A stretch of 63,682 nucleotides of DNA, counting the filler. It is 3 parts of 3 records of this genome, joined end to end, with 100 filler letters (N's around TTAATTAATTAA, not from the genome) between each part and the next. Parts side by side here need not be neighbours in the genome. Positions count along the whole stretch, not along the records: positions 1 to 31,063 come from SRR2962707_521; 2 more parts are not named here. One strand, written 5' to 3'. The notes beneath the pieces were generated by a model. That model was not told where the DNA came from. It saw nothing but the letters and a program-made list of their open reading frames with translations, and did no database searches. Below, one piece after another: positions 8,321-31,163 of the stretch. How positions within the stretch are numbered: the stretch's first letter is position 1; every line of letters starts with the position of its first letter. Made by a program: the position numbers and the translations under genes.

Positions 8321-8351
8321 GATGCTACTCGAAAAGATGGGTGCGGTGCGG

Positions 8352-12720: not shown

Positions 12721-12789
12721 AGGAATGTCTCGCTGGTCAAACAGAGTAAGAGAAATATAGGGGCAATGACGGGGGTAGAAAAGTTTCGC

Positions 12790-12828
12790 TTGACAGTTTG
12801 TGCGCTCGATTTAATCATGTGTTTAAAT
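12790..12828 (+). promoter_or_regulatory. Sigma70-type promoter (TTGACA -35) overlapped by TetR operator copy 2
   Basis: TTGACA at 12790-12795; ATTTAATCATGTGTTTAAAT at 12809-12828 covers the -10 region. Confidence 0.7.
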
Positions 12829-12901
12829 TGAGCTGCTTAGTCAAGGAGGATGACATGGCCGTTGCAGAGGGTCTACCGCGCTGTGGGGCGAGGTCTCGCC
12901 C

Positions 12902-13432
12902 ATGCTGACCAGCTTGCGATCGCTGGCGCTGGCGGGGACCCGCGCCATGACCGTTCTGGCCTGCGCCGTCCTGGCGCTGGCGACCTTGCATGTGTTCGCC
13001 GATGTCATCGCGACGAAGTTCTTTCACGCGCCCATTCGGGGCACGCATATCATCGTCACCCATTACTATATGGTCGCGCTGTTCTTTCTGCCCCTGGCCT
13101 TTGCAGAGCTTCGTGACCAGCATATCAGCGCCGATCTGCTCTATTCGGCCATGCCGGAATGGTTCAAGCCCTGGCTCAATGGCGCCAATCTGGCGTTTCT
13201 CACCGCGTTTCTGGGCGTGTTGACCTGGCAGGCCTGGATCAAGGCGCTCAGCCAGACCTTGCGTGGTGAACAGGAGACGGCCGCCGGCCTGGTCCTGCTG
13301 ATCTGGCCCTCTCGCTGGCTTGCCGTCCTGGGCTTTGGTGCCATGACGCTCGCCGCCTTGCTGCGCCTGTCGGCCCTGCTGCTTTCAAGCCCCAACGTGG
13401 ACACGCCCAAGGAACTGACTTCCGATGAGTGA
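12902..13432 (+). CDS. dctQ: TRAP transporter small permease
   Basis: 4 TM helices, HISADLL motif, directly upstream of dctM. Confidence 0.85.
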   Translation: MLTSLRSLALAGTRAMTVLACAVLALATLHVFADVIATKFFHAPIRGTHIIVTHYYMVALFFLPLAFAELRDQHISADLLYSAMPEWFKPWLNGANLAFLTAFLGVLTWQAWIKALSQTLRGEQETAAGLVLLIWPSRWLAVLGFGAMTLAALLRLSALLLSSPNVDTPKELTSDE

Positions 13433-14723: not shown

Positions 14724-14751
14724 CTAAGTTTACAACAGGAGGAGACCTGAA

Positions 14752-15890: not shown

Positions 15891-16334
15891 ATGATCCATC
15901 ATCTCAAGACCTCGATTACGCTTCAGGATGGCGAAAAGATCGTCGAAGCCGCGCTTGCTCACTCTGCCGCGAACGGCTTCCTGCCGATGGCCATCTCCGT
16001 CCTCGATGCGGGCGGTCACACGGTCGTCGCCAAGCGTCAGGACGGTTGTGGCATCCTGCGCCTTGATATTGCCATGGCCAAGGCCTGGGGCGCTCTGGGC
16101 ATGGGCATGCCGGCGAGGACCATCAACGAACGCCTGGGCGGCAACATGCCGTTTCTGACCGGACTGATTGCTGCCTCCGATGGCCGTATGGCACCCAATG
16201 CGGGCGGCGTCCTCATTCTCGATACCGAACAAAAAATCATCGGCGCAGTCGGCCTGAGTGGAGACACGGGCGACAACGACGAGCTTTGCGCAATTGCCGG
16301 CATCAAGACCGCCGGCTTTGCCGTTGGCGCATAA
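15891..16334 (+). CDS. GlcG/HbpS family heme-binding protein
   Basis: ISVLDAGGH..KRQDG..IAMAKAW..GGVLI..IIGAVGLSG...DELCAIAG. Confidence 0.88.
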   Translation: MIHHLKTSITLQDGEKIVEAALAHSAANGFLPMAISVLDAGGHTVVAKRQDGCGILRLDIAMAKAWGALGMGMPARTINERLGGNMPFLTGLIAASDGRMAPNAGGVLILDTEQKIIGAVGLSGDTGDNDELCAIAGIKTAGFAVGA

Positions 16335-16347
16335 CAAGGAGACAATC

Positions 16348-17796
16348 ATGGATTATGGATTGCTGATCGACAACCAGGACCAGCCTGCCCGCGCAGAGGG
16401 CATGTTCGAGCGAACCAACCCAGTCGATGGTTCAACCGCATCGCGCGCCGCAGCTGCGCTATCTGCCGATGTGGATAACGCGGTAGCCTCTGCCGCAGAA
16501 GCCTTCAAGTCATGGTCGATGACCGGCCCGAGCGAGCGCCGCGCCATCTTCAACAAGGCCGCGGATCTGATGGAGGCGTGGACCCCGCGCTTCATCGAAC
16601 TGGGCATCGCCGAGACCGGCGGTACCGGCCCTTGGCACGGGTTCAATTGCTACTTCGCCGCCAAGATCCTGCGGGAAGCGGCAGCAGCCACCACCCAGAT
16701 CAAGGGCGAGGTCATCCCGTCGGACCGTCCTGGCTCGCTTTCAATGGCGATGCGCCAGCCAATTGGCGTGCTGGTGGGTATGGCGCCTTGGAACGCCGCC
16801 CAGATCCTTGGTGTACGGGCTTTCGCCCTGCCCATCGCCTGCGGCAACACCATAGTGTTCAAGGCCTCGGAGAAGTGCCCCGGGACACATCGGCTGCTGG
16901 GCGATCTCATGGTTGAAGCCGGGCTTCCCAAAGGCGTACTCAATATTGTCACCCATGACGCCAAGGATGCGCCCGAAGTCGTCAATGCGCTGATCGACCA
17001 TCCGCTGACCCGCCACATCAATTTCACCGGCTCCACCCGGGTGGGCCGGATCATAGCCGAGCGCGCCGCCCGGCACCTCAAGCCCTGCCTGCTCGAGCTG
17101 GGCGGCAAGGCTCCCCTTGTCGTGCTCGACGATGCGCACATTCCCGGTGCGGTCAACGCAGCCAAGTTCGGCGCTTTCATGAACCAGGGGCAGATCTGCA
17201 TGTCCACCGAGCGAGTGATCGTTGCGGACAGTATCGCGGATGCATTTATCGCCGAGTTTGCCGAAGCCGCCTCAAAGCTGGTGGCGGGAGATCCAAAGAC
17301 GCAGGTGCATCTGGGTTCGGTGATTGATCAGGGCGCCATGGATCATGTCCGCGCGCTCGTCCAGGACGCAGAGAGCAAGGGCGCCGTCAGGGTCGCCGGC
17401 ACGCTGCCCGAAGCCGGAACGATCATGCAGGCCACTGTGATGGATCATATCACGTCGGAGATGCGTCTATATGGCGAAGAGAGCTTCGGGCCGGTCGTTT
17501 CGGTCATTCGCGCCCGCGATGATGCCCATGCCATCGAGATCGCCAATGACACCAGTTACGGCCTCTCGTCCTCGGTCTTCAGCCAGGACATTCGCCGCGC
17601 CCTTGAGGTCGCAAGGCAAATCCAGGCGGGCATCTGCCATATCAATGGCCCAACCGTGTTCGATGAGGCACAGATGCCATTTGGTGGGGTGAAGTCCAGT
17701 GGCTATGGCCGCTTTGGCGGCTCTGCCGGGATAGATGCGTTTACCGAACTGCGCTGGATCACTATCGAGGATCCGGCCCAGCCTTACCCGTTTTGA
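16348..17796 (+). CDS. Aromatic aldehyde dehydrogenase (vanillin/salicylaldehyde dehydrogenase type)
   Basis: APWNA, NFTGSTRVG, LELGGKAP, NQGQICMSTER, EESFGPV, IDAFTELRWIT..YPF. Confidence 0.9.
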   Translation: MDYGLLIDNQDQPARAEGMFERTNPVDGSTASRAAAALSADVDNAVASAAEAFKSWSMTGPSERRAIFNKAADLMEAWTPRFIELGIAETGGTGPWHGFNCYFAAKILREAAAATTQIKGEVIPSDRPGSLSMAMRQPIGVLVGMAPWNAAQILGVRAFALPIACGNTIVFKASEKCPGTHRLLGDLMVEAGLPKGVLNIVTHDAKDAPEVVNALIDHPLTRHINFTGSTRVGRIIAERAARHLKPCLLELGGKAPLVVLDDAHIPGAVNAAKFGAFMNQGQICMSTERVIVADSIADAFIAEFAEAASKLVAGDPKTQVHLGSVIDQGAMDHVRALVQDAESKGAVRVAGTLPEAGTIMQATVMDHITSEMRLYGEESFGPVVSVIRARDDAHAIEIANDTSYGLSSSVFSQDIRRALEVARQIQAGICHINGPTVFDEAQMPFGGVKSSGYGRFGGSAGIDAFTELRWITIEDPAQPYPF

Positions 17797-17850
17797 TCAT
17801 TCGGCGGCACAGACCAATTCTGCGCCGCCCCGCATTTGGGAGTTGGCCCT

Positions 17851-18639
17851 GTGCTGCTTTATCATGGGATTTCCAGTGTCTGCTCGATCAAGGTGCGCCT
17901 GTGCCTCGCCGAACTTGGGCTTCCCTATGACAGCAGGGTCCTCGACCTTCAGGCCGGGGACCAGTATGCGCCTGACTATCTTGCGCTCAATCCCAATGGC
18001 GTGGTGCCGACGCTGGTCGATGATGGTCTGGTCGTCACCGAATCCAGCCTGATCATCGAATACCTTGATCGCGCCTACAATGGCGATCGCCTGATGCCTG
18101 CGGACCGGGCTGGTGAAGTCAGGGCGCGATTGTGGTTGCTGCGCTGCCTCGACATTCATGCGGCAGTAAACACGCTCACCTTTGCCACCATTGGTCGCGA
18201 TAGGATGAGGGCCAGCAAATCGGCCGATGAAATCGAAGCCGATCTGCACAAAATGCCGAACCCCGTGGCCCGGATGAAACGCCGCGACCTGATCACCAAT
18301 GGGCTCAATTCCGTTTATCTCGACGATGCGCTGGATCGCTTCGGGCGCACGCTTTCCGATATCGCGAATGATCTTGGTCAGAATGACTGGATTTCCGGCC
18401 CTTCATTCGGCATCGCGGATATCGCCCTGCTTCCTTACATCGATCGACTGGAGCGTCTCGGATTTGAGGGGTTCTGGCGCGACGTGCCGCTGGTTGCGCA
18501 TTGGTTGGTCCGGATGCAGGCCCGGCAGAGTTATCGCACTGAAGTCGAGGGCAAGCTTGGCGCTGCCGCGACCAGCAGCATGCGAGCCGGTGGTGTGCCC
18601 TACTGGCCAAGAATTGAGAGCCTGCTGGCTTCGGGCTGA
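17851..18639 (+). CDS. Glutathione S-transferase (LigF/PcpC-like)
   Basis: SSVCSIKVRL, LNPNGVVPTL, TESSLIIEYLD, FGIADIAL; GTG start after GGGAG (upstream TTG at 17836 also possible). Confidence 0.88.
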   Translation: MLLYHGISSVCSIKVRLCLAELGLPYDSRVLDLQAGDQYAPDYLALNPNGVVPTLVDDGLVVTESSLIIEYLDRAYNGDRLMPADRAGEVRARLWLLRCLDIHAAVNTLTFATIGRDRMRASKSADEIEADLHKMPNPVARMKRRDLITNGLNSVYLDDALDRFGRTLSDIANDLGQNDWISGPSFGIADIALLPYIDRLERLGFEGFWRDVPLVAHWLVRMQARQSYRTEVEGKLGAAATSSMRAGGVPYWPRIESLLASG

Positions 18640-18670: not shown

Positions 18671-18719
18671 CATTCACAAAACTGATTGGCGACGTTCCGA
18701 ACAATCAATTTCTCTCAAT
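18671..18719 (+). promoter_or_regulatory. nod-box-like LysR (NodD) binding site
   Basis: C-ATT-CACAAAACT-GAT-N8-TTC-CGAACAATC-AAT-TTCTCTCAAT versus consensus Y-ATC-CAYNNYRYR-GAT-N7-ATC-NAAACAATC-RAT-TTTACCAATC; 100 bp upstream of the operon start. Confidence 0.65.
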
Positions 18720-18818
18720 AATCCGACCTTGTTAGCGTCCCTCTCATAAACGGGTCGTCACGCCTGAAGAGCGTGCTGCCCTGAGGAGTGGCCCAATGGG
18801 CCGATTTGGGAGCTAATC

Positions 18819-19745
18819 ATGTCCACAACTCGTATGCTGTCCTCCGGTCTTGTGCTGGCCACAGTCAGTTTGTCCACGATCGGCGGTGCTATGGCGCAGG
18901 ACAGGACCATCGCATTTTCGCCGCTGTCCCTCGACATTCCAGCGATGCAGGGCCTGTCCGGCGCGCTGAACCATTTCGCCGATGAGGCGGGCATTGGCTA
19001 TATGGCGCTCGACCCCAAGTTTGACGCCACGACCCAGGCCCAGCAGCTGGCGCAGGTCATCGAAACCGGCCGCGTCAACGGCGCCTGGGCCATTACCATT
19101 GGTGCACCAGCTCTGCGTAACGTCGTGCAGCGCGCGGTCGAGAGCGGCATTCCGATGGTCGTTTCCGGCCGGCCCGGAGACTACGGTCTCAGCGAGCCCC
19201 AGCCGGGCATTGCCTTTTCCGATATCGACTATGAAGACTACGGCACGACCATTGGCCGCGAACTGGGCAATTGCATTGTCGAGAAGCTCGAGGGCGAGGG
19301 CAAAGTGTTCTTCCTCGGCGACACTTCTGGCACCGAGGCGGCCAAGATAACCGACGATTTCGGCAAGGCCGGCCTGGAATATGCGGCACCAAACGCCGTC
19401 ATCATTGCCGAAAACCTGGCCCTGGAGCGTCTGGAAAGCCAGCAGAAGGTCTCACAGATGCTGCTGGCGCATGGCGACGCCAATGCGGTCTATGCCTCCA
19501 ATGACGAAAACGCCATGGGTGCCCTGCAGGCCTTTGAGGCTGCCGCACTGCCGACGCCCTGCATCGTGTCGGGCGGCGGCTCCGACGAGGTCCTCGGGTT
19601 TGTGGAGAGCGGCAAGATCTATGCGGCGGCCGGCTTCGACTTCGAAGGCGATGCACATCAGAACTTCCAGACTCTTTTGGCCATGATGGACAAACCGACC
19701 GAGCTCGGTCCCATCCTTTCCATCCCGATCAAACTGACGAAGTAA
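18819..19745 (+). CDS. Sugar ABC transporter substrate-binding protein (RbsB/CUT2 type)
   Basis: Signal peptide AMA-Q, periplasmic binding protein motifs AVESGIPMV, AVYASNDENAMGALQA. Confidence 0.88.
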   Translation: MSTTRMLSSGLVLATVSLSTIGGAMAQDRTIAFSPLSLDIPAMQGLSGALNHFADEAGIGYMALDPKFDATTQAQQLAQVIETGRVNGAWAITIGAPALRNVVQRAVESGIPMVVSGRPGDYGLSEPQPGIAFSDIDYEDYGTTIGRELGNCIVEKLEGEGKVFFLGDTSGTEAAKITDDFGKAGLEYAAPNAVIIAENLALERLESQQKVSQMLLAHGDANAVYASNDENAMGALQAFEAAALPTPCIVSGGGSDEVLGFVESGKIYAAAGFDFEGDAHQNFQTLLAMMDKPTELGPILSIPIKLTK

Positions 19746-19751
19746 ATCCTG

Positions 19752-20825
19752 ATGTCACACGACGCGATCAACGCTGGCGCTCCCTCGGGGGGCGCCATCA
19801 ACGGGGCAGCCGCGAGCAAGACCCACCTGCCCGCCGACATTGCCGTCCTGGTGTTCCTGCGGGACCGCGGTATCTTTGTGCTGTGGGTCTTGCTCCTCGT
19901 GGTCTTTGCCATTTGGAACCACCCGTATTTCGCCACCATCAACAATGCCATGTTGATCGTCAGCGCCGCGTCGCTGACGGCCATCTTTGCAGCGGCAGTG
20001 GCGGTGGGCCTGTTTTCAGGAGCGCTTGATCTATCGTTGCCCGGCGTCGCGGCACTTGCAACCTGTGTCGTGGGCGTGCTGATCAAGCAGTACGGGGTGC
20101 CGGTGCCGTTGTCCCTTCTGGCCGGCGTGGGCGTCGGTGTGATCTGCGGCCTGGTTAACGGCTCTATCGTGCTGCGCGGTCTCAACCCGCTAATCGTCAC
20201 GATCGGCACGCTGTCGGTGACATCGGGCCTGGCCGCACTGGTCGTCGGTGGCTATGCGATTTCGGGCTTGTTCGAACTCGAATTCATGGGCTCGGCCCGC
20301 TATCTCGGCATACCGTCACATGCTTACATTGTTGCCGTCGTCTACGCCGGGTTGACGGTGTTTCTCACCCGTACCCGCCACGGCATTCGCATGCGGGCGG
20401 TTGGCGGCAACGCCGAAGCCGTGCGCCGCGCAGGCCTCAGTGACCAGCGCTACAAGATATTGGGCTTTGTCATCTCGGCCATGCTGGCGTCACTGGGCGG
20501 CATCATGACCATGGCGCTGGTATTTGAAGCGTCTCCTTCGGCCAGTCCGTCCATCCTGTTCACGGCGCTGACCGCAGTGTTTCTCGCCGGCGTGTCGCTG
20601 GCCGGGGGCAGGGGGTCACTTCCGCGCGTGCTGATCGGTGCTTTGGTGCTGGCCACCATCTCCGATGCCCTGACCATTGCCGGCGTACAGCCCTATTGGG
20701 CAACCGTCACCACGGGGGCGCTGATGATTGGAGCACTGGTATTCGACAAGACCATGACCGAGGCTATTTCGAGCCGCCTGGTCAAGGTTTCGACTGCGTC
20801 CGTGCATGAAAGGGGCAGCAAATGA
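19752..20825 (+). CDS. Sugar ABC transporter permease
   Basis: GALDLS, TRHGIRMRAVGGNAEAVRRAG, AVFLAGVSLAGGRGS. Confidence 0.92.
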   Translation: MSHDAINAGAPSGGAINGAAASKTHLPADIAVLVFLRDRGIFVLWVLLLVVFAIWNHPYFATINNAMLIVSAASLTAIFAAAVAVGLFSGALDLSLPGVAALATCVVGVLIKQYGVPVPLSLLAGVGVGVICGLVNGSIVLRGLNPLIVTIGTLSVTSGLAALVVGGYAISGLFELEFMGSARYLGIPSHAYIVAVVYAGLTVFLTRTRHGIRMRAVGGNAEAVRRAGLSDQRYKILGFVISAMLASLGGIMTMALVFEASPSASPSILFTALTAVFLAGVSLAGGRGSLPRVLIGALVLATISDALTIAGVQPYWATVTTGALMIGALVFDKTMTEAISSRLVKVSTASVHERGSK

Positions 20826-21604
20826 CCCAGACCCGCGAAACTGCAGCCCTGCGCCTGACCGGCATTTCCAAGCACTACGGATATATCAAGGCGCTGGATA
20901 ATGTGGACCTGCATGTTCACCCCGGCGAAGTTGTGGCCCTGCTTGGCGATAATGGTGCGGGCAAGTCGACCCTGCTCAAGGTCATGTCCGGAGCCCATCA
21001 GGCCTCGTCCGGCGAGATCGCGGTGAATGGCAAGGCAGTGCACCGTTACGATCCCAAGATCGCGTCCGACCTGGGCGTGGAGATGGTCTACCAGGACCTT
21101 GCCCTGGTCGACACACTGGACATCTCGACTAATCTGCAGCTTGGCAAGGAGCCGCTGCTTCCGTTTCCGCTCAACCTTTTCGGCTTCGTCGATTTTCGCA
21201 AGATGCACCAGATCACCGAGACGCAGCTTGAGCGGCTGGGTGTGCGGACAGCGCCGCCCGAACGCCCAGTCGAAATGCTCTCGGGTGGCCAGCGCCAGGT
21301 CACGGCAATCTCCCGTTCGGCGGTGCGCCTTTTCGAACGTGGCAAGGGCACCATCCTGATGGATGAGCCGACTGCTGCGCTTGGATACGAACAGACCCAA
21401 ATGGTCGAACGGTTGATCCGGCGCATGGCCGATGAAGGTTTTGCCATCGTGCTGGTGACGCACAATCTGCCTTTGTGCTTTGCCGTGTCCGATCGCATTG
21501 TCGTGCTCAATCGTGGTCGCAAGGTTGCCGATGTTCCGCGCAGCGAGGCCGATCACAACCGCGTCGTCGCCTGGATCACAGGCGCCGAACAGGCCATCGC
21601 CTAG
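20822..21604 (+). CDS. Sugar ABC transporter ATP-binding protein
   Basis: GDNGAGKST, LSGGQRQ, MDEPTAALG. Confidence 0.93.
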   Translation: MTQTRETAALRLTGISKHYGYIKALDNVDLHVHPGEVVALLGDNGAGKSTLLKVMSGAHQASSGEIAVNGKAVHRYDPKIASDLGVEMVYQDLALVDTLDISTNLQLGKEPLLPFPLNLFGFVDFRKMHQITETQLERLGVRTAPPERPVEMLSGGQRQVTAISRSAVRLFERGKGTILMDEPTAALGYEQTQMVERLIRRMADEGFAIVLVTHNLPLCFAVSDRIVVLNRGRKVADVPRSEADHNRVVAWITGAEQAIA

Positions 21605-21631
21605 TCGCTCGATTTCCTCAGCAGGTGCAAG

Positions 21632-22477
21632 ATGTTAGAAACGATCACCATCGGCGACCGCGATGGGGAACCCCTCCGTGCCGATTTCTTCAAGCCGGCT
21701 AAAGCCGGTGCCGCCCTGCCGCTGATCGTGGCGGCGTCCGGCGGTGGCTGGCGGCGCGGCAATCGTCAGGCCCTGGAGGCATGGGGCAGGTTCTTCGACG
21801 CGCACGGCTTTGCCTTTGCCAGCATTGACTACGCAAGGGCCAGTACCGGGCCATCCTGGCCGCGCAACGCCCAGGATGTTGCCCAGGCGCTGCGCTATTT
21901 CGCAGCCAACGGTGTGGCGCACGAAATTGATCCTGAAAGGGTCGGCGTACTCGGCGTGTCCGCCGGGGCCCACCTGACAGCGCTGGCGCTGCTGTCCGAT
22001 ACCTTTGAAACGCCTCCGGTCCGCTGCTTTGCAGGCATTTACGGCGTCTACGATCTGATGGCGCATTGGCAGCACGACCTGGCGGCACATGGCCGCCCCG
22101 GCGAGGACTTGACCGAACGCATGATCGGTTGCACGCCTTACGACGACCCACAGCGCTTCCACGACGCGTCGCCTTTGCGGCAGATCACCTATGCCAAGGC
22201 CATGCCGGTGCTGTTGAGCTGGGGCCACAATGATCGTGAGGTCAGCCCGGAACAGTCGGCCCGGTTCGCCATTGCTCTCAAGCAAGCAGGTTTTCCTGTG
22301 CGCTGTCGGGAGTTCGACGAAGCGGGCCATTTTTGGTTCAGCGAGGAAGATCCTGCGGTGTCCGGCACTCTTTCGGCGCGGCTGGCGCCCGAACTGATGC
22401 TGTTCTTCAATAGATCGCTGGCTCCTGCGGAGGCGGGTGTATCCCAGTTTACGCTGGCTTCGCGAGCCGTGATCTAG
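21632..22477 (+). CDS. Alpha/beta hydrolase, HSL-family esterase
   Basis: Oxyanion SGGGW, nucleophile elbow GVSAG, Asp in NDREV, His in AGHFW. Confidence 0.87.
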   Translation: MLETITIGDRDGEPLRADFFKPAKAGAALPLIVAASGGGWRRGNRQALEAWGRFFDAHGFAFASIDYARASTGPSWPRNAQDVAQALRYFAANGVAHEIDPERVGVLGVSAGAHLTALALLSDTFETPPVRCFAGIYGVYDLMAHWQHDLAAHGRPGEDLTERMIGCTPYDDPQRFHDASPLRQITYAKAMPVLLSWGHNDREVSPEQSARFAIALKQAGFPVRCREFDEAGHFWFSEEDPAVSGTLSARLAPELMLFFNRSLAPAEAGVSQFTLASRAVI

Positions 22478-22503
22478 CTCATTCGAGCGTGGAGGAGGAG
22501 CCG

Positions 22504-22950
22504 ATGGACATTACCCCGGACGATTTTCCCGAGATCCGCTGGCACGGCCACTGGATCTGGATGGGTGACAGCACCATTGAAATGGGTTCGCCTGCCGGCG
22601 GGGATCGAAAGCCGCGTCCGCCTGCTCATGGCCTCTTCCGACGCTGCTTCGACCTGGCCTCGGTGCCCGGACGGGTCCCTGCGCGCATCACCGCGGGTTC
22701 GCGCTACATGCTGTTCATCAACGGCCAGCGGCTCGGATATGGCCCCATCCGCGGACATTACCGGCGTCTTTCCTACGACATGAACTATCTGGCGCCGTAT
22801 CTGCAACCGGGCCGGAACACGATTGCCGTCCTCGTCTCGGTCCGTGATGGCAGCCTGGACATAGAAAGCCCGGTTCCGATGCTGGTCGACCTGCCCGGAA
22901 ACCCCGAACAACGCCATCCTGCTGGGTGCACGACAATCAACCTGGACTAG
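22504..22950 (+). pseudogene. Internally deleted alpha-L-rhamnosidase (GH78): N-terminal domain fused to C-terminal tail
   Basis: WIW..LFRRCFDL..ARITAGSRYMLFINGQRLGYGP..YDMNYLAPYLQPGRNTIAVLV is the rhamnosidase N-domain; only about 148 aa, catalytic barrel absent. Confidence 0.7.
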
Positions 22951-22976
22951 ACGCGGCCCCGGCCGTGGGAGGATTT

Positions 22977-24629
22977 ATGCAAGACGACTTTTCTCAAGCC
23001 CCGTTCAACCTGGGTAAGGACGACCTGGCCTGGATCGAGGATCGCATGGCGGCGCTGACGCCGCGCCAGAAGATCGCGCAGCTCTTCAATGTGCTGCTGT
23101 GGGGTTCGGACCCCGCGGCTGTCGCCATGGTGGAGGAATTGCAGCCCGGTTCGGTGGGACGGTTCGATGTGGTCGATGTCGAGAGCGAACGGACGCTGCT
23201 CGATAGGCTGAATGCCAGCTTCACCGTGCCTATGGTGGTGACAACTGATCTAGAGGGCAGTTTTGCCTCGCCCAAGGGCTCGACCCCGTCTCCAAATCCC
23301 ATGGCCTTTGCTGCCATCAATGATCCCGACACGACCGAGAAGGTGTCCGCTGCCATGGCGCGGCAGGCAGCGGAAATCGGCATCAAGTGGTCTTTTACCC
23401 CCGCTGTGGACATCAACAAGGCTTGGCGGTCTGGCATTGTGGGGACGCGCAGCTTCGGCTCCGATCCAGAAAAGATCCGCGAACAGGCGCTGGCCCATAT
23501 GCGCGGCCTCCAGGGTGCCGGTTGCGCCGCCACCGCCAAGCATTGGCCGGGCGAGGGCTATGACGACCGCGATCAGCACCTGGTCACCACGGTCAATCCG
23601 CTCTCGGTCGCCGAATGGGAGTCCACCTATGGCCAGCTCTATCGGGCCCTCATTGAAGGCGGCGTGCTTACCATCATGCCGGCCCATATTGCCTTTCCGG
23701 CCTATATGCGGGACGTCGAGGGTGTAACAGGGCGCGACGCCTACAGGCCCGCCTCGATCAACCGGGCGCTCAACGAGAACCTCCTGCGTGGCCGACTTGG
23801 CTTCAAGGGTCTGCTGGTGTCCGACGCTACGCCCATGGCAGGGCTCACCTCCTGGATGAAGCGGGAGAACCTCGTCGTCGAACTGCTCAATTCCGGTTGC
23901 GACGTCATTCTGTTTGCCAAGGATCTGCGTGCCGACATCGAAACCCTCGAAGCGGCCTTGGCCGATGGCCGGGTGAGCTGGGACCGTGTGGACCAGGCCG
24001 TGCGGCGGCAGCTGGCCCTTAAGGCCCGGATCGGCGTCCGCAAGAACCACGGCATGTTGCCGCCTCCGATGCAAAATGGAGACGATGCCAAGGCCATTGC
24101 CGAGGCGCTCAAGCGCGCACCAACGCTGGTCAAGGACAGCAACCAGCACTTGCCCATGACCCCGGATCGCTATCGAAAGGTGTTGCTGGTCTCCAAGGGT
24201 GTGGTGTTTCCGCCGGCGCCCCAGCCGCTGCCTTTGGCGCTCATCGACATGATGAAGGCGGAGGGCTTCGAGGTGACCCATCACCAGTGGGGCACGCCTG
24301 TCGATCCCGCCGGATACGACCTGCTGCTCTACGTCTTTGCCGAGGAAACTCTCCTCACACGCGGCATCGTTTCGCTCAATTGGCTGGAAATGAACGGCCA
24401 GTTCGAGGCGGCGATGAACCGGCACTGGCATGACGTGCCCACGATCATGGTGTCGTTCGGCTGGCCCTATTACCTGGCCGAGGCCACGCTGGTGCCGACC
24501 TATATCAACGCTTATGCCGCCCACCCGGCCATGCAGCGCAATGTGCTGGATGCCATGATGGGCCGTGCAGGGTTTCCCGGCGAAAGCCCGATGGACGCTT
24601 GGTGTGGCATCGATCCAGCGATCTGCTGA
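22977..24629 (+). CDS. GH3 glycoside hydrolase/phosphorylase (Nag3/NagZ-like subgroup)
   Basis: DLEG, GTRSFGSDP, KHWPGEGYDDRDQH, LGFKGLLVSDA nucleophile; cytoplasmic, start after GGAGG. Confidence 0.9.
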   Translation: MQDDFSQAPFNLGKDDLAWIEDRMAALTPRQKIAQLFNVLLWGSDPAAVAMVEELQPGSVGRFDVVDVESERTLLDRLNASFTVPMVVTTDLEGSFASPKGSTPSPNPMAFAAINDPDTTEKVSAAMARQAAEIGIKWSFTPAVDINKAWRSGIVGTRSFGSDPEKIREQALAHMRGLQGAGCAATAKHWPGEGYDDRDQHLVTTVNPLSVAEWESTYGQLYRALIEGGVLTIMPAHIAFPAYMRDVEGVTGRDAYRPASINRALNENLLRGRLGFKGLLVSDATPMAGLTSWMKRENLVVELLNSGCDVILFAKDLRADIETLEAALADGRVSWDRVDQAVRRQLALKARIGVRKNHGMLPPPMQNGDDAKAIAEALKRAPTLVKDSNQHLPMTPDRYRKVLLVSKGVVFPPAPQPLPLALIDMMKAEGFEVTHHQWGTPVDPAGYDLLLYVFAEETLLTRGIVSLNWLEMNGQFEAAMNRHWHDVPTIMVSFGWPYYLAEATLVPTYINAYAAHPAMQRNVLDAMMGRAGFPGESPMDAWCGIDPAIC

Positions 24630-24631
24630 TC

Positions 24632-25561
24632 CTAGAGGCCCGATGCCCCCTCGGCGTCGGGCCGATGATTGCAGATGATCCCACGGACCCATTTGAGACA
24701 GGCATCGTCCTCGGCGAACCTGCCCCATTGCAACACCAACCTATTCTCCGGGACGTCAAAGGGCAGGGGGCTGACTGCGAGAGGCAGGATTTCCGCAAAT
24801 TTGCGGGCGATGGACTCCGGCAGGGTGCCGATACGGTCCGTACCCACGACCATCCAAGGCACCGCCGAGAAGGCGTTGACGGTCACGCCGGAGCGCAGCA
24901 TGCCATGCGTCTGCTCGATCAAGTTGCGGTCGGCAGGTATTTTTGCCATCTGCCCGATTTCAACAGTGACATGGCTAGCCGCCAGATAGTCCTCGACCGT
25001 CAATGTGCGGCCGGCCAATCGGCTTTCCTTCCACATCAGACAGGCAAAGGGTTCCGAATAGAGCTCCTGCATGGGGTGCTGGGGTGAGGTGTACTGGCGC
25101 GGGATCAGCAGGAAATCCATGCGACCCTGTTCGAGATAGGCATGGGGCGGATGCGTGATCGGACGGATGTTGAAGAAAATGCCCGGTGCGAGCGCCGACA
25201 CCCTGCGGCTCACCCCGGTCATGAAAATGATACTCGCCACGTCCGAAGTCATGATCGAAATCGTGCGCTGTTGCTCCTCAGGCCTGAACTCGCGAACCGC
25301 GAGCACATTGGTGTCGATGCGGCGCAGGAGGTCCCGCACCTCTTCGTGGATGACACGGGCGCGATCGGTCATCACCATTTGGCGGCCGACCCGCACCAGC
25401 AGGTCGTCTTCGAAAAACTCCCGCAGCCGCGTCAGTGCATTGCTCATGGCCGCCTGGCTCAGATGCATGCGCTCGGCTGCTCTCGTCACACTTTTCTCAT
25501 CCAGCAAGGCTTCGAGCGCCACCAGCAGATTGAGGTCCAGATTTCGAAACCGCATGTCCAT
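24632..25561 (-). CDS. NodD-like LysR transcriptional regulator (FdeR/NodD subfamily)
   Basis: MRFRNLDLNLLVALEALL..HLSQAAMSNALTRLREFFEDDLL; DFLLIP..SPQHP; GTDRIGTLP..LQW..DDACLKWVR all parallel NodD. Confidence 0.85.
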   Translation of the reverse strand: MDMRFRNLDLNLLVALEALLDEKSVTRAAERMHLSQAAMSNALTRLREFFEDDLLVRVGRQMVMTDRARVIHEEVRDLLRRIDTNVLAVREFRPEEQQRTISIMTSDVASIIFMTGVSRRVSALAPGIFFNIRPITHPPHAYLEQGRMDFLLIPRQYTSPQHPMQELYSEPFACLMWKESRLAGRTLTVEDYLAASHVTVEIGQMAKIPADRNLIEQTHGMLRSGVTVNAFSAVPWMVVGTDRIGTLPESIARKFAEILPLAVSPLPFDVPENRLVLQWGRFAEDDACLKWVRGIICNHRPDAEGASGL

Positions 25562-25600
25562 CTCCTCCGGTCCCAGTTTGGCAGATGGCAGGCTTGAGTA

Positions 25601-25639
25601 AAGAAATGGATTTGGCCTATGTCATAGTCTCTACTTATG
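25601..25639 (-). promoter_or_regulatory. LysR T-N11-A box plus activation site facing the nodD-like gene
   Basis: Minus strand ATAA-N7-CTAT followed by CAAATCCATT, in the same register as the site at 26555. Confidence 0.6.
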
Positions 25640-25652
25640 GACAGGATGGGCC

Positions 25653-26552
25653 ATGACGCTCGACCCGCGCTTGTTGCGTATTCTTTTGGCGGTTGCGCGA
25701 GAACGCTCGCTCTCGGCCGCCGCTGTGCGCCTCAACATGACCCAACCCTCGGTATCCATCGCCATTGCTCAGCTTGAAGACCGTGTCGGTAAGCAGGTGG
25801 TCATCCGTGATCGCAAGGGCGCGGTGCTGACGTCTGTTGGCGAGATGCTGGTGCGCCATGCCCGTGCGATCGAGAACGTTCTGTCCCATGCCGACCAGGA
25901 CTTGAAGCACCAATTGGTCGATGAGGACAGCCCGCTCACGATTGGCGGCACCACTGGCGCCCTGCTGGCCATTGTCCCCCGGACGACCAGCCTTCTGCAG
26001 TCAGAGGGCCGCGTAGTCGATATTTCGCTGGTCGACGCCACAGACCAGGATCTCGACGAATTGCTGCGCAGCCGTGCCGTGGATCTGGTGCTTTCGCCGG
26101 CGCCAGCCCGTCCAGGCCCGAGTGACATCGAGCATATCCTGCTCCTGCGCGAGCCGTTCCTTTTGGTGGCGGCCCCTGGAGTGGAGCTTCCTCAAAATGG
26201 GCTGAATGTGTCCCAGGCGGCGGGCTATCCGTGGATTCTGCCTCTGGCCCAGGGTGCCACGCGCAGCCAGGTGGAGGCCATGTTCCTCAGCGCCGATACG
26301 CCGCTCCCGCGCAACCTCGTCCGGTGCGACCTGCTGGCAACCATGAAGGAACTTGTGCGCCATACCGGCTCCCTCGCCCTTCTGCCGGCCTCGGTCGTTG
26401 AGGCAGAGATCGCTGCAGGACTGCTGCAGACCGTTCCGCTCGTCGGTGGACCACCGCCGCGCCGCCTGATTGCCCAGCGCCTGCGCAGTGCGGAATTGTC
26501 CCCGACAGCAGCGCGCTTCCTGCGCCATGCGCAAACCCTGCAGGAACTCTAA
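25653..26552 (+). CDS. LysR family transcriptional regulator
   Basis: SLSAAAVRLNMTQPSVSIAIAQLEDRVG HTH; LTTR effector domain. Confidence 0.92.
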   Translation: MTLDPRLLRILLAVARERSLSAAAVRLNMTQPSVSIAIAQLEDRVGKQVVIRDRKGAVLTSVGEMLVRHARAIENVLSHADQDLKHQLVDEDSPLTIGGTTGALLAIVPRTTSLLQSEGRVVDISLVDATDQDLDELLRSRAVDLVLSPAPARPGPSDIEHILLLREPFLLVAAPGVELPQNGLNVSQAAGYPWILPLAQGATRSQVEAMFLSADTPLPRNLVRCDLLATMKELVRHTGSLALLPASVVEAEIAAGLLQTVPLVGGPPPRRLIAQRLRSAELSPTAARFLRHAQTLQEL

Positions 26553-26554
26553 TC

Positions 26555-26593
26555 TATAGGCTACATCTATACTGATCGGCAAAACCATTATTT
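26555..26593 (+). promoter_or_regulatory. LysR recognition and activation sites upstream of the monooxygenase operon
   Basis: Perfect TATAG-N7-CTATA at 26555-26571 followed by CAAAACCATT. Confidence 0.7.
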
Positions 26594-26666
26594 GGCTTTA
26601 GGGGGCACGCCGTCGATAGTCGCCTCCTAACCACGAGAGCCGGTAACGGGCAGTTTAGGATGCGGC

Positions 26667-28241
26667 ATGGCGCCACGGTGGGACATCGCGATCATTGGCG
26701 GCGGGCCGGTTGGAGCCTATCTCGCCAATAGACTTGGTCTTTCAGGCCTGCGCGTGTTGGTCGCCGACCGCGAAACGGCGCCCTATGCCTTGCCGCGCGC
26801 CGTGCATATCGACCACGAAATGGTGCGCCTGCTGGCCGATATCGGCCTGGCCGACCAGATGATCACCCGGATGCGCGCCGGTGACGGACATGTGCATATC
26901 GGGGCGGACCATGGCGTCATTCGCTACCTTTCGGTTGCCGGTAGTCCACGTCGCTATGGCTACGCCAATGACTATTTTTTCTATCAGCCCGAGCTTGAAG
27001 GCGTCCTGCGCGAGGGGCTGGCTCGCTTTGACAAAGTCGAACTGCGTCTCGGGGCCGAACTGGCCGGTCTGACGCAGGATGAGCATGGCGCGACGCTGAC
27101 CTTTGCCGATGGCAGAGTCGAGCAGGTAAAATGGGTGATCGGCTGCGATGGGGCCCGCTCGACCGTCCGCAAGCTGGCCGGCATAAGGCTCGATGATCTC
27201 GAATTTGACGAGCCCTGGTTGGTCGTCGATGCCGAAGTGGATGGGCCGATATCCTTCCCGTCATTTGCCGGGGTGCCTGACGGCGCCAACCTGCAGAACC
27301 TGTCGGTGATGATGTGCGACCCGGCGCGCCCGGCCACGATCGTCCCAGGCCGTGATAACCATCGCCGCTGGGAATTCATGCTGCTGCCCGGCGAAGACGA
27401 TGCCGCAATGGCTATGCCGGAGCGGGTTTCCGAACTTGTGGCGCCCTGGGTGCAAGGCGTGAGCCACACCATCATCCGCGCCGCCACCTATCGCTTCCAT
27501 GGCCTCGTGGCCGAGAAATGGCGGGTGGGGCGCGTGTTCCTCGCAGGTGATAGCGCGCACCAGACGCCGCCGTTTTTTGGCCAGGGCATGTGCCATGGCC
27601 TGCGCGACGCCGCCAATCTGGCCTGGAAGCTGGCGCTGGTCTGTGCCGGCAGGTCCAACAGTCTGCTGCTCGACACCTACCAGCCTGAACGTGAAGCCCA
27701 GGTCCGGCATGTCATAGGGGCCGCTGTCAATGCCGGCCGCTACATCTGTGAACTTGACCCGGGTAAGGCCGCCGAACGTGACGCACGAATCCGCAGCGAC
27801 GGCGGAATGCGCTCCGCCTCCGAACTCATCGCGCCCATGGCATCCTCCATCATTTCGGCCGACGCTGGCGAACGCTTCATCAATCCGCAGCTTGGCGAGG
27901 GACGTTATCTTGACGATGCCACCGGGCGCGGTTGGGTGCTGCTCGAAACCGAACAGCATCAGCTCGGGCAAGCCGCCCGGGCCATACTGGAGGCGCTTGG
28001 TGCCTCGCGGCATGCCCTCGACGCGCTGAACGATAGCCACGCCATGCTGGCCGGCTGGTTTGCCGAACGCAACCTGACTGCTGCGCTGATCCGGCCCGAT
28101 TTCTATATCGGGCTCGTCGCCAACGCGTCGGGCCAATTGAATGACAGGCTGGTCCACATGGCGAATGCGGCGGGACTGGACCAGCGCTCCCCACACGACC
28201 TGACACAAGAAGAACCGGGAAACATCCATGCGCTTCGTTAG
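26667..28241 (+). CDS. FAD-dependent aromatic monooxygenase (MhpA/FdeE-like)
   Basis: GGGPVG, PRAVHID, FYQPELE, GCDGARS, LAGDSAHQTPPFFGQGMCHGLRDAANLAWKL. Confidence 0.9.
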   Translation: MAPRWDIAIIGGGPVGAYLANRLGLSGLRVLVADRETAPYALPRAVHIDHEMVRLLADIGLADQMITRMRAGDGHVHIGADHGVIRYLSVAGSPRRYGYANDYFFYQPELEGVLREGLARFDKVELRLGAELAGLTQDEHGATLTFADGRVEQVKWVIGCDGARSTVRKLAGIRLDDLEFDEPWLVVDAEVDGPISFPSFAGVPDGANLQNLSVMMCDPARPATIVPGRDNHRRWEFMLLPGEDDAAMAMPERVSELVAPWVQGVSHTIIRAATYRFHGLVAEKWRVGRVFLAGDSAHQTPPFFGQGMCHGLRDAANLAWKLALVCAGRSNSLLLDTYQPEREAQVRHVIGAAVNAGRYICELDPGKAAERDARIRSDGGMRSASELIAPMASSIISADAGERFINPQLGEGRYLDDATGRGWVLLETEQHQLGQAARAILEALGASRHALDALNDSHAMLAGWFAERNLTAALIRPDFYIGLVANASGQLNDRLVHMANAAGLDQRSPHDLTQEEPGNIHALR

Positions 28242-29052
28242 CTTCCGCCATCTCGACCGCCAGAGCTGGGGGCGCCTGGACGGCGACCGGGTGGTGGACC
28301 TTGGTGCTCATGCGCCCGATCTCAAGTCAGCCATTGCCGATGGTCTTCTGTCGGCAGGGGCGGACGGGCCGCGCCTCAAGAGGACCAATGTGCACCTCTT
28401 GCCGGTCATTCCAAACCCCGGGAAGATCCTCTGCGTCGGCCACAATTACGAGGAGCACCGGGTCGAGACCGGACGCGACCGGACTGACCATCCCTCGATC
28501 TTCACGCGCTTTGCCGACACATTGGTGGGCGCCGACGATCCAATCGTCCGCCCAGCCGTCTCAACCGATCTCGACTACGAGGCGGAGCTTGCCGTGGTGA
28601 TCGGCAAGCCCGGTCGCCACATCGCAGCCGAAAGCGCCATGGAACACGCCGCTGGCTTTTCGTGCTTCAACGACGCTTCTCTGCGCGACTGGCAATGGCA
28701 CACGCGCCAGTTCATCCCCGGCAAGAATTTTCCCGCCACCGGTGCTTTTGGCCCGGCCTTGGTGACTCCGGACGAGGTTGGTGACCTCGATTCCGTGCTG
28801 GTCGAGTCCTATCTCAATGGCACGCGCATGCAGGGGGCAACGCTTGACCACATGCTGTTCCCCATTCCGGCGATCATCGCCTATGTCTCGGCCTTCACCC
28901 CTCTCAGACCCGGCGACGTCATTGCCACAGGGACGCCCGGTGGCGTCGGCGCCAAGCGCAACCCGCCGGTCTGGATGAAGCCGGGCGACCAGATCGAGGT
29001 GCGCGTTTCCGGCGTCGGCAGCCTCGTCAACCGCATCGCGGCCGAGGCCTGA
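28228..29052 (+). CDS. Fumarylacetoacetate hydrolase family protein
   Basis: KILCVGHNY..H, LDYEAELAVVIG, FND.S.RDWQ, GKNF, PGDVIATGTPGGVG. Confidence 0.94.
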   Translation: MRFVSFRHLDRQSWGRLDGDRVVDLGAHAPDLKSAIADGLLSAGADGPRLKRTNVHLLPVIPNPGKILCVGHNYEEHRVETGRDRTDHPSIFTRFADTLVGADDPIVRPAVSTDLDYEAELAVVIGKPGRHIAAESAMEHAAGFSCFNDASLRDWQWHTRQFIPGKNFPATGAFGPALVTPDEVGDLDSVLVESYLNGTRMQGATLDHMLFPIPAIIAYVSAFTPLRPGDVIATGTPGGVGAKRNPPVWMKPGDQIEVRVSGVGSLVNRIAAEA

Positions 29053-29053
29053 C

Positions 29054-29974
29054 ATGAGCCAGGCGCCGCGCTTCCCCATTTGCGACCTCGCCAACGTGCA
29101 TCTGCTGGTCCCTGACCTCGACAAAGCCGTTCAATTCTACACTGCGGTGTGGGGGCTCATCGAGGCAGGCCGTCTTGATGGCGTCGTCTACCTGCGCGGG
29201 TCGGGGTCCGATCCCTATCTGGTCGCGCTGCACGCGGGTGACCGCGCGGCCGTCGTCAGTGTCGGCTTGCGCGCTGACCCACTCACTGACCTCGCGGCCC
29301 TGCGTGATCGCGTGAAAGCCGCGGGCGCGGATGTCGAGCCGATCGCGCCGGTCAGCGAATTCGGTGGCGGTCAGGGCTTTGCCTATCGTGACCGGGGCAA
29401 CCGACGCGTCACCATCGTACAGGGCGATGACCTGCTGGCGCCCCTCGACGCCCCACTGACACCGCGGCGGCTGGCTCACGTCAATATCAATACGGCCGAT
29501 GTCGAGACCGAACTGGGCTTCTATCAGAAAGCGCTAGGATTTGAGATCACCGACCGCACCAACATAATGAGCTTCGTGCGAACCAATGAAGATCACCATA
29601 TCCTGGTCCTGGCGACGGACACGATCGATACGCTCAACCATATTGCCTTTCTGCAGGACGATCTCGAGTCCGTCATGCTGGCATCCGGGCGCATGGTCGA
29701 TGCCGGTTACCCCGTTGCATGGGGGCCTGGCCGCCATGGTCCTGGCGACAATGTCTTCAACTATTTCATCGATCCGTTCGGCTTCGTCATCGAGCACACC
29801 GCCGAGATCCTGAAGGTCGACGACAGCTACAAGGTCGGCGGACCTGCCGATTGGGTGTGGCCACCCGGACGGACCGATCACTGGGGCGTTGGCCACATCA
29901 AGGGCGAAGACTGCAAGAAGGCCCAAAGGGCCATACCATTCAGCCAGGAAATATCTGCGAGGAATAATACATGA
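29054..29974 (+). CDS. VOC-family extradiol-type dioxygenase (FdeC-like)
   Basis: Two VOC domains; AHVNIN, DHHIL, LNHIAF, WGPGRHGPGDNVFNYFIDPFGFVIEH. Confidence 0.87.
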   Translation: MSQAPRFPICDLANVHLLVPDLDKAVQFYTAVWGLIEAGRLDGVVYLRGSGSDPYLVALHAGDRAAVVSVGLRADPLTDLAALRDRVKAAGADVEPIAPVSEFGGGQGFAYRDRGNRRVTIVQGDDLLAPLDAPLTPRRLAHVNINTADVETELGFYQKALGFEITDRTNIMSFVRTNEDHHILVLATDTIDTLNHIAFLQDDLESVMLASGRMVDAGYPVAWGPGRHGPGDNVFNYFIDPFGFVIEHTAEILKVDDSYKVGGPADWVWPPGRTDHWGVGHIKGEDCKKAQRAIPFSQEISARNNT

Positions 29975-30969
29975 GTAATTCGGCTATTCTGGATGCTCCG
30001 GCGGGCACCACTACGCCCTATGTCATCAAAGCCGGGCAGGGGCGCTCGGTCGTTGTCGCGGGCCAGGTGGTCCGCATCCTGGCCGGAGTTGGAGAGACCG
30101 CATCAGGCTATGGCGCAGTCATGCTGGAATCGAGCATCGACAAGCGGCCGATCCCCATGCATTTCCATGAAAAGGAACATGATACCTGGCTGTGTACCCG
30201 CGGCCGGCTGCAGATCTGGGCCAATGATCAGTGTCGGGTGCTGACCGAAGGCGACTTTGCCTATGTGCGGCCCGGCGACGTTCACTCCTATCAGTGTGTT
30301 GCCCCCCGCACGCAGTTCTTCGGTATCGTGGCGCCCGGAGGCTGGGAAGGTTTCTTCGACGATGCTGGCGAGGCCTGGGCCGCGGCTGCCTTGCCGGAGC
30401 CGACCCATCCCTATGACTTCAGCCGCATGGGGCCGGCGATGGGCAAGCATGGCGTGAACAGGGTCGAAAAGGACTATTGTCTACCCTCAAATGGAGACGA
30501 AACGGACCGTGCATTACCGGCAGGACCGGCCTCCTATGTCTTGCAGTCGGGTTATGGCGCACGTCACCGGCTCAATGGTCACCTCGCAACCACGTTGCTC
30601 GACATAACCATTACCAGCGGCGCATTGGAAATGCGGACCATCGAGGCCGGTCGAGGTGCCGCAATGCCGACTTTGCGGCATGAACAGACGCATGTGACGC
30701 TCTTTGTTCTCAACGGTAGCTTTCGACTGTCGCTCGGCTCAGAAACGCACACTTTGCATGACGGCGACTTTGCCAATATCCCTGCAGGGACCGCCTATGC
30801 CACCGAAGTGGTCAGCGGTCATGCCCGTTGGGTCCTGTCCAGCGCGAACGGCAACGGCCTGCAATATTGGTGCGCTGCCGGTGAACCAACGGAAAGCTAC
30901 TCCTTCACTGAACAAGTTTCCAGGTCGCTCGAAGCCGATTTGTCAGGAGTTGATGCAAAGCTTACCTAG
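29971..30969 (+). CDS. Quercetin 2,3-dioxygenase-like bicupin (QdoI/YxaG type)
   Basis: PYVIKAGQG..PMHFHEKEHD..GDFAYVRPGDVHSY..PGGWEGFF, second cupin SYVLQSGYG..GDFANIPAGT; layout parallels B. subtilis QdoI. Confidence 0.82.
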   Translation: MSNSAILDAPAGTTTPYVIKAGQGRSVVVAGQVVRILAGVGETASGYGAVMLESSIDKRPIPMHFHEKEHDTWLCTRGRLQIWANDQCRVLTEGDFAYVRPGDVHSYQCVAPRTQFFGIVAPGGWEGFFDDAGEAWAAAALPEPTHPYDFSRMGPAMGKHGVNRVEKDYCLPSNGDETDRALPAGPASYVLQSGYGARHRLNGHLATTLLDITITSGALEMRTIEAGRGAAMPTLRHEQTHVTLFVLNGSFRLSLGSETHTLHDGDFANIPAGTAYATEVVSGHARWVLSSANGNGLQYWCAAGEPTESYSFTEQVSRSLEADLSGVDAKLT

Positions 30970-31063
30970 CGTCGGAACGCCCGTTACTCTCGTGCCGAAA
31001 TTTTGCTTGCTGGAGATGGTGTGGCGGGCATCAGTCGGGTTGACCGCACTGCAGGTGCAATGC

Positions 31064-31163
31064 NNNNNNNNNNNNNNNNNNNNNNNNNNNNNNNNNNNNN
31101 NNNNNNNTTAATTAATTAANNNNNNNNNNNNNNNNNNNNNNNNNNNNNNNNNNNNNNNNNNNN
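31064..31163. other. Artificial contig linker (N44-TTAATTAATTAA-N44)
   Basis: Six-frame stop spacer inside an N run; base composition changes across it. Confidence 0.98.

Follow-up and report, generated by a model that had tools for sequence, protein, structure and literature searches.

The window, i.e. the whole 63.7-kb stretch of DNA analysed here, carries at 18819-30969 a catabolic locus that is real, conserved, and in part decayed, for which our preferred reading, at a probability of roughly 0.6, is the degradation of plant flavonol glycosides through uptake and deglycosylation, opening of the C-ring, and disposal of the A-ring. The reading is built on gene families, a predicted fold, operator conservation and co-occurrence of genes, and the substrates and regulatory links named below are all inferred from these. 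The features of the locus are the following.

18672-18711, plus strand: nod-box-like operator (ATT-N9-GAT, 8 nt, TTC-N9-AAT)
18819-19745, plus strand: binding protein of an ABC importer (Peripla_BP_4, Pfam)
19752-20825, plus strand: permease (BPD_transp_2, Pfam)
20822-21604, plus strand: ABC ATPase, single-domain (Pfam)
21632-22477, plus strand: esterase (BD-FAE/Abhydrolase_3, GVSAG motif)
22489-22950, plus strand: GH78 alpha-L-rhamnosidase remnant, a 153-residue open reading frame (by alignment to the GH78 enzyme of a Devosia metagenome-assembled genome)
22926-24629, plus strand: GH3 enzyme, BglP/NagZ type
24632-25561, minus strand: LysR1, NodD-like regulator
25653-26552, plus strand: LysR2, second LysR-type regulator
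26555-26571, plus strand: LysR-type box TATAG-N7-CTATA, conserved in aligned loci
26667-28241, plus strand: group A FAD monooxygenase (FMO), MhpA/phenol-hydroxylase type with C-terminal domain
28228-29052, plus strand: FAH-family enzyme
29054-29974, plus strand: two-domain VOC dioxygenase, type I extradiol-like
29971-30969, plus strand: quercetinase-family bicupin

Genes were called from Pfam and NCBIfam profile searches; together with alignments, these recovered at 18819-30969 every gene family that a first-pass annotation of the sequence had named. Stop and start codons overlap at permease/ATPase, remnant/GH3, FMO/FAH and VOC/bicupin, which fits two operons, one at 18819-24629 and one from 25653 or 26667 to 30969. 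Simple sigma-70 and terminator scans gave no signal above shuffles.

The bicupin carries the prediction of C-ring opening. By sequence it matched Bacillus subtilis YxaG (E 2.3e-35), Aspergillus quercetinase (1.2e-14) and Streptomyces QueD (4e-10), and no characterised bicupin other than quercetinases was matched at E<=1. A structural model built on 19 homologues (predicted local distance difference test score, 91.0) returned YxaG first in Foldseek (template-modelling score, TM, 0.89; root-mean-square deviation 2.2 A over 330 columns), with fungal quercetinase at 0.85; the listed matches to rank 13 were all quercetinases (TM 0.80-0.90), and other bicupins at about 0.5 followed from rank 20. The two-cupin fold of the predicted model superposes on solved quercetinases, and the proposed QdoI-like identity is upheld by YxaG as top match both by sequence and by predicted fold. 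Five residues (H64, H66, E69, D71, H105) are invariant in the 19-sequence family alignment, and the N-terminal cupin keeps a 3-His-1-carboxylate site made up of H64, H66, H105 and D71, the last of which aligns to the YxaG glutamate (for YxaG we assume the usual ligand numbering). The degenerate pattern of the C-terminal cupin is conserved across the bicupin family and a YxaG-type second metal site is absent; probably, one metal site only is catalytic. The protein thus shares with YxaG/QdoI, a quercetin 2,3(2,4)-dioxygenase, the bicupin fold, sequence homology and a His/His/acid/His site in one cupin, and differs in keeping the ligands only in its N-terminal cupin, a single-site state that presumably is more like the fungal quercetinase. 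Its gene ends a four-gene catabolic operon, whereas Bacillus yxaG is a single gene under TetR/MarR-type control. A reading as gentisate dioxygenase, prompted by nearby glutathione S-transferase and FAH genes, was rejected, as no such enzyme was matched at E<=1 by sequence; oxalate decarboxylases and gentisate/salicylate dioxygenases reached a TM of only about 0.5 to the model.

One genome per species was scanned for bicupin relatives, which yielded 33 loci (six of them shorter than 15 kb), scored by tblastn (E<=1e-15, at least 50% query coverage, at least 30% identity). Near the bicupin gene were found VOC in 29, FMO in 27 and FAH in 25 loci, with the complete triad in 25; 25 loci had an esterase, belonging to one or the other of two BD-FAE types, within 10 kb (directly adjacent in several), and 20 had esterase and triad together. 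Glycosidases occurred in 15/33 loci (GH1 in 11, GH3 in four, GH78 in two), and the ABC/GH3/LysR1 part in only four. The carriers comprise Devosia, Tianweitania, Rhizobium/Allorhizobium, Rhodobacterales, Sphingomonas, and metagenome-assembled genomes (MAGs) of an Acidobacteriota member and of Gemmatirosa (Gemmatimonadota). Lack of co-occurrence had been named beforehand as grounds for giving up a joint pathway; what was found is that deglycosylation, quercetinase/esterase and FMO-VOC-FAH genes occur together across genera, and the arrangement is not due to chance. In Sphingomonas, the order is GH1, esterase, TonB-dependent receptor, FAH, FMO and LysR, divergent from VOC and bicupin; the GH1 enzyme and TonB receptor are not homologous to the GH3 enzyme and ABC importer of Devosia/Rhodobacterales but fill the same roles, and this exchange argues for a bulky glycoside as the substrate.

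The intact form of the locus, from the operator through the bicupin and including a full GH78 gene, is found in the Devosia MAG (G001; adjoining loci L043 and L002), with identities of 83% for the binding protein, 90% for the permease, 92% for the ATPase, 81% for the esterase, 88% for GH3 and 87% for LysR1, and with the order LysR1, LysR2, FMO, FAH, VOC and bicupin after GH3. Directly after the bicupin, and on the opposite strand, this MAG encodes a thiolase and two CoA-transferase subunits (L002 11040-13578), which could complete the breakdown of the B-ring acid by a beta-ketoadipate route, or be unrelated. Devosia subaequoris, the nearest genome by nucleotide identity (93% over the binding-protein gene), shows a more advanced loss: window positions 19730 and 29953 are joined directly (L001 8704-10936), a 10.2-kb deletion that removes the permease through VOC genes and leaves the binding protein, the bicupin and the nod-box-like element, and no monooxygenase was found when its genome was searched. 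A conserved protein of about 380-394 residues with no Pfam domain is encoded behind a nod-box-like element in Aquimixticola (L007 3268-4452) and after GH78 in Allorhizobium undicola (L016); it is absent from the window.

Of the two regulators, LysR1 is the NodD-like one: it is identical to Rhizobium etli CFN42 NodD1 at 110/297 residues (37%) over the full length (E 8e-68), its N-terminal DNA-binding region is near-identical to that of NodD1, and NodD1 genes are among the best of 623 plasmid matches to it. LysR2 aligns to NodD1 at 26% over 155 residues only. As nod-box reference served two R. etli p42d boxes from the nodB-upstream region, located by a layout that we take to be that of nod boxes. 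The 40-bp element at 18672-18711 lies 108 bp before the start codon of the binding-protein gene, consists of two ATC-N9-GAT-like halves, and is conserved in five loci of four genera. Its distal half agrees with the R. etli boxes at 14/16 positions in the window and at 15/16 in Alloyangia, and the element is the best match to the R. etli consensus in the 63.7 kb on both strands (19/27), though this direct score is only marginal. The comparative evidence is the stronger: a pattern built from five sites and scanned over all 832 kb of DNA collected for the analysis gave 11 sites at <=3 mismatches, and none in 30 block shuffles. Six of the 11 sites were outside the pattern-building set, and all of these precede cluster genes in loci that include a LysR1 orthologue, L043 being counted together with the adjoining L002. 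Of the new sites, the one in Alloyangia directly precedes the cupin-esterase genes beside LysR1; Aquimixticola, Cypionkella and A. undicola each have one upstream of GH3, and Aquimixticola has another upstream of an unknown gene; the site before the binding-protein gene of the Devosia MAG was predicted beforehand and then found. Altogether, the box is present in 6/6 LysR1-bearing loci, and in loci without LysR1 only in the deletion derivative of D. subaequoris.

LysR2, in turn, adjoins the FMO gene in 21/33 loci (at least 30% identity), and the TATAG-N7-CTATA box is positioned 96 bp before the FMO start codon; its core, ATAG-N7-CTAT, is kept in six aligned loci of five genera, L003 and L007 showing one or two substitutions. 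Most likely, as predicted from these sequences, the NodD-like LysR1 of this genome has import, the esterase and sugar removal under its control, while the bicupin and ring disposal answer to LysR2. NodD-like control of the whole block, as first proposed, would thus be limited to the ABC-esterase-GH operon with its nod-box-like element and would not extend to the bicupin operon, which lies behind LysR2 and a different box. The block was also described as being without nodulation genes, and none were found on contig 1, which holds the locus. Among five genomes of carriers or relatives, NodA (PF02474) was found in the nodulating A. undicola (G005) only, and not in those of the Devosia MAG, D. subaequoris, Sphingomonas floccifaciens and Aquimixticola. 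In comparison with rhizobial NodD and nod box, the full-length similarity of LysR1 and the two-half, nod-box-like layout of the putative operator are shared, and the position of the window's element, before catabolic and not before nod genes, is different, as is its spacer length.

The first operon begins with a CUT2-type ABC importer (18819-21604; binding protein, permease and single-domain ATPase), whose orthologues sit with GH3 and LysR1 in L007, L014, L016 and G001. The N-termini of the enzymes, inspected by eye, have no evident signal peptide, so the glycoside would need to be imported. The esterase (21632-22477) is a candidate cytoplasmic depside esterase. The following open reading frame, 22489-22950, has no Pfam hit, and aligns to residues 1-117 (74%) and 793-831 (49%) of the 832-residue GH78 enzyme that holds the equivalent position in the Devosia MAG cluster. 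It is the remnant of an alpha-L-rhamnosidase, as had been suspected: both ends remain, an in-frame deletion of about 675 codons (residues 118-792) has taken out the core, and the catalytic six-hairpin domain (Bac_rhamnosid6H, 394-636) is absent. A contig of run X8, which may be the window's own sample, covers 22751-23075 with zero differences. With residues 118-792 gone, the removal of rhamnose from rutin-type glycosides, which the first-pass annotation had included in the pathway, cannot work here.

The GH3 enzyme, expected to be a beta-glucosidase, is indeed present but of the BglP/NagZ type and not a classical beta-glucosidase. It matched the beta-glucoside phosphorylase BglP (5VQD) at E 2.8e-85 over residues 22-562, NagZ-type enzymes ranking next; the homology is full-length, and the stretch 'KHWPGEGYDDRDQH' aligns to the KHxPGxGxDxRDQH motif of 5VQD, common to both, so that the Asp-His dyad motif KH(F/W)PG.G..D..D.H is present. 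Judged from its sequence, it is a candidate flavonoid beta-glucoside phosphorylase or glucosidase, and may have phosphorylase activity. We speculate that a flavonol glucoside, with its good leaving group, is the natural counterpart of the activated aryl glucosides with which BglP was found in a metagenomic screen; a flavonoid context is not stated in the portion of that report available to us (PMC8950772).

For the FMO-FAH-VOC triad, FMO scored 475.6 bits to NF004829 (cut-off 390 bits), and VOC matched 3B59 (E 9.4e-34), an uncharacterised protein; FAH is a candidate 2,4-diketo-acid (acylpyruvate) hydrolase. The triad and the esterase-bicupin pair behave as separate modules. The pair occurs without the triad in 3/33 loci (L010, L012, L033), and the triad without the bicupin on a 45-kb Falsirhodobacter plasmid (ACMSD-family decarboxylase, GntR, TRAP, FMO 61%, FAH 68%, VOC 55%), on a Massilia plasmid (MFS, decarboxylase, VOC, FAH, FMO) and in genome G233 (TonB receptor, FMO, VOC, FAH). 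The triad also stands alone with small-acid (carboxylate) transporters and therefore probably degrades a freed phloroglucinol-type ring; this module pattern probably favours action on a free monoaromatic acid over action on the intact flavonoid. An Alloyangia plasmid combines LysR1 (55%), a more distant bicupin, two hydrolases, GntR, FAH, glutathione S-transferase, TRAP, FMO, a further FAH, and VOC. The close form of FMO is rare (E<=1e-120 in 2/301 sampled alphaproteobacterial genomes, one of them G001), and a search of plasmids with VOC gave no Herbaspirillum or Variovorax among the 40 records and ten organism names listed. A second, more distant triad precedes the esterase-bicupin genes in the Rhizobium/Allorhizobium loci L005, L011, L016 and L017 (FMO 38-42%, VOC 47-51%, FAH 52-54% where present), accompanied by GntR and an ACMSD-family decarboxylase.

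The proposed pathway would run as follows. LysR1 would read the nod-box-like operator before the uptake/deglycosylation operon, the CUT2 importer would carry the glycoside into the cytoplasm, and the BglP-type GH3 enzyme would take off the glucose, possibly by phosphorolysis. The bicupin, as a putative flavonol 2,4-dioxygenase (quercetinase), would then yield a depside and CO, and the esterase would cut the depside to 2,4,6-trihydroxybenzoate and the B-ring acid, which for quercetin is protocatechuate. From the trihydroxybenzoate, FMO of the LysR2-side operon would form, with or after decarboxylation, a 1,2,3,5-tetrahydroxybenzene-type ring; VOC would open this ring beside the vicinal hydroxyls, giving a 2,4-diketo acid, and FAH would hydrolyse the diketo acid to small acids; by the chemistry that we infer, such a product belongs to the substrate class of FAH hydrolases. 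The predicted A-ring chemistry parallels a fungal pathway (monooxygenase, ring-cleavage and FAH-like enzyme) that proceeds via 1,2,3,5-tetrahydroxybenzene, accepts 2,4,6-trihydroxybenzoate, and ends near acetopyruvate (PMC10832562). In that account the fungal monooxygenase is decarboxylating and the ring-cleavage enzyme is of the DUF3500 type, compared with VOC here (PMC10832562).

Several points weigh against this reading. All functions are predicted from sequence or fold. The identity of the bicupin to YxaG is only about 22-30%, and its C-terminal cupin has L235, H237, V242 and Y276 at the four YxaG-ligand positions, i.e. three of the four ligands are lost. CUT2 importers mostly carry free sugars. 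The operator's score of 19/27 is one position above the maxima of 16-18 in 20 shuffles, hence marginal, and its spacer exceeds that of the R. etli boxes by one base. VOC is absent from four of the 33 bicupin loci; the FAH family includes isomerases and decarboxylases as well; no decarboxylase was found on contig 1, and the triad-linked decarboxylase elsewhere is nearest to ACMSD, an enzyme whose substrate arises by ring cleavage, so that the steps may follow another order. Furthermore, the locus is cut by the end of contig 1, 94 bp after the bicupin stop codon.

A different order of steps would follow from the A-ring-first routes of the fde/ifc type, i.e. FMO would hydroxylate C8 of the intact flavonoid, VOC would cleave the A-ring, FAH or the esterase would free a pyranone, and the bicupin would open this pyranone as IfcD does. 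The Herbaspirillum seropedicae fde system likewise has a NodD-like LysR activator (FdeR) for flavonoid degradation together with monooxygenase, VOC, hydrolase and cupin families, and opens the A-ring of naringenin (FdeE, FdeC); the fde accounts consulted report neither a quercetinase step nor a glycosidase or sugar importer. Quercetin is a further substrate that FdeE hydroxylates (PMC11303751). The Variovorax ifc system resembles the locus in its oxidative route, its enzyme families (FAD monooxygenase, glyoxalase/VOC, alpha/beta hydrolase, cupins) and its link to plant roots, and differs in that IfcA is specific for isoflavone aglycones and that the cupins IfcD1/IfcD2 act on the pyranone; the available text describes neither an esterase-quercetinase pair nor a glycoside module, and its authors treat quercetinases as a separate route (PMC11069340). 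On a plasmid of Bosea sp. F3-2 from soybean rhizosphere (L044), FMO (40%), VOC (36%) and FAH (53%) occur with two small cupins. The order in this candidate ifc/fde-like relative is cupin, VOC, MFS, cupin, FMO and FAH (L044 11604-17664), plus a LysR regulator. A-ring and free-phloroglucinol chemistry would be identical, and the two readings differ in the order of steps, not in kind. We consider the A-ring-first order unlikely for this locus: the triad occurs without any cupin beside TRAP carboxylate-type transporters and a decarboxylase, esterase-bicupin pairs exist without the triad, and the only close structural matches of the bicupin are true quercetinases. The 'fde-like' character assigned at first can be upheld only for enzyme-family composition.

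Flavonol glycosides might also be the wrong substrate, the locus acting instead on a different phenolic glycoside or ester of plants, such as a glucoside of phloretin or phloroglucinol, a depside of the tannin kind, or a fragment of algal phlorotannin, with a non-flavonol as substrate of the bicupin. A marine or algal association is seen in several carriers (Aquimixticola, Alloyangia, and the red-alga Falsirhodobacter), the substrates are deduced throughout, and the aryl glucosides with which BglP-type GH3 enzymes were found are generic ones (PMC8950772). In view of the strong sequence and fold matches of the bicupin, all of which are flavonol dioxygenases, and of the place of LysR1 in the flavonoid-sensing NodD group, this appears quite improbable. 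That the genes are mere neighbours without a common pathway, as the differing gene order among genera and the restricted occurrence of the ABC/GH3/LysR1 part might suggest, is hardly credible given the co-occurrence in Devosiaceae, Rhizobiaceae, Rhodobacterales, Sphingomonadaceae and the Acidobacteriota and Gemmatimonadota MAGs, the start/stop overlaps at FMO/FAH and VOC/bicupin, and the shared operators. The flavonol-glycoside reading is retained, and the first-pass interpretation was largely right in outline, with corrections for the dead rhamnosidase, the BglP-type GH3 enzyme, and the separate LysR2 and operator.

Other features predicted on contig 1, and its artificial end, are as follows.

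Within 3989-9737, minus strand: RND efflux pump (permease, adaptor, NodT-family outer-membrane subunit)
12067-12720, minus strand: TetR regulator
12902-15843, plus strand: TRAP transporter (Q/M/P)
16258-17796, plus strand: aldehyde dehydrogenase
17836-18639, plus strand: glutathione S-transferase, weakly like maleylacetoacetate isomerase
31064-31163: artificial contig joint (Ns around ttaattaattaa)

The RND pump is followed by a thiamine-diphosphate-dependent enzyme and then by the TetR regulator. In Tianweitania (L003), the same block of this enzyme, TetR and TRAP stands directly before FMO-FAH-VOC-bicupin, and TetR/TRAP (12067-15843) possibly belongs to the same catabolic neighbourhood. The glutathione S-transferase is 53% identical to the one inside the Alloyangia plasmid cluster; we tentatively associate it and the aldehyde dehydrogenase (16258-18639) with the locus.

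The linker ttaattaattaa, flanked by runs of N, occurs at 31064-31163 and again at 55627-55726, which shows that the window consists of three contigs placed end to end; their GC contents are about 61% (to 31 kb), 54% (to 55.6 kb) and 33% (the remainder). The locus is wholly within contig 1, at its 3' end, and the bicupin is the final gene before the joint. The term 'island' had been used for the block; the GC content is uniform throughout contig 1, with no shift at the block, so composition does not mark it as mobile, and the reading as a mobile island was rejected. Contigs from runs of three other studies match 27269-31050 (3.8 kb) with one letter different, enter unrelated sequence upstream of 27269, inside the monooxygenase gene, and branch at 31021-31050, where contig 1 stops; this may reflect a recent transfer, or a rearrangement beside a repeat. 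The third contig, which codes for a PIG-L-domain protein, an SSF symporter and a GFO/IDH/MocA oxidoreductase, looks like that of a different organism, and more than one organism may have been binned together in this assembly.

Among the signals in root exudates and litter, flavonols are major ones, and to our knowledge the bacterial fate of quercetin past the quercetinase step is poorly defined. The literature compared comprised PMC11069340, PMC11303751, PMC12809279, PMC10832562, PMC8950772, PMC5557065 and the preprint 10.64898/2026.07.17.739263. In it, depside esterases are described as not well characterised (10.64898/2026.07.17.739263, 2026), and the A-ring and C-ring routes of flavonoid degradation are handled as separate (PMC11069340, 2024). 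Neither a bacterial cluster of this kind nor an aerobic phloroglucinol route was found described in the literature searched, the original fde and FdeR papers and supplements lying outside it. It is a tentative possibility, and somewhat doubtful as a whole, that the locus represents an undescribed, widespread bacterial route from flavonol glycosides to central metabolism, in which a NodD-like sensor and nod-box-like operators would work in Alphaproteobacteria of soil and sea that do not nodulate, a GH3 enzyme of the BglP type would cleave flavonoid glucosides, its natural substrates, with phosphate, the esterase would be the depside-splitting partner of quercetinase that has long been missing, and a new bacterial FMO-VOC-FAH pathway would degrade the phloroglucinol ring via 1,2,3,5-tetrahydroxybenzene.

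The locus supplies candidate genes for the whole flavonol-glycoside route and a testable pair of operator and regulator. It hints at what GH3 glucoside phosphorylases do in nature, and at bacteria having an equivalent of the fungal tetrahydroxybenzene pathway. It would also tie NodD-type flavonoid sensing to nutrition rather than to symbiosis, and, if the wider route just outlined is true, such sensing would, as a catabolic regulon, predate nodulation or reach further than it.

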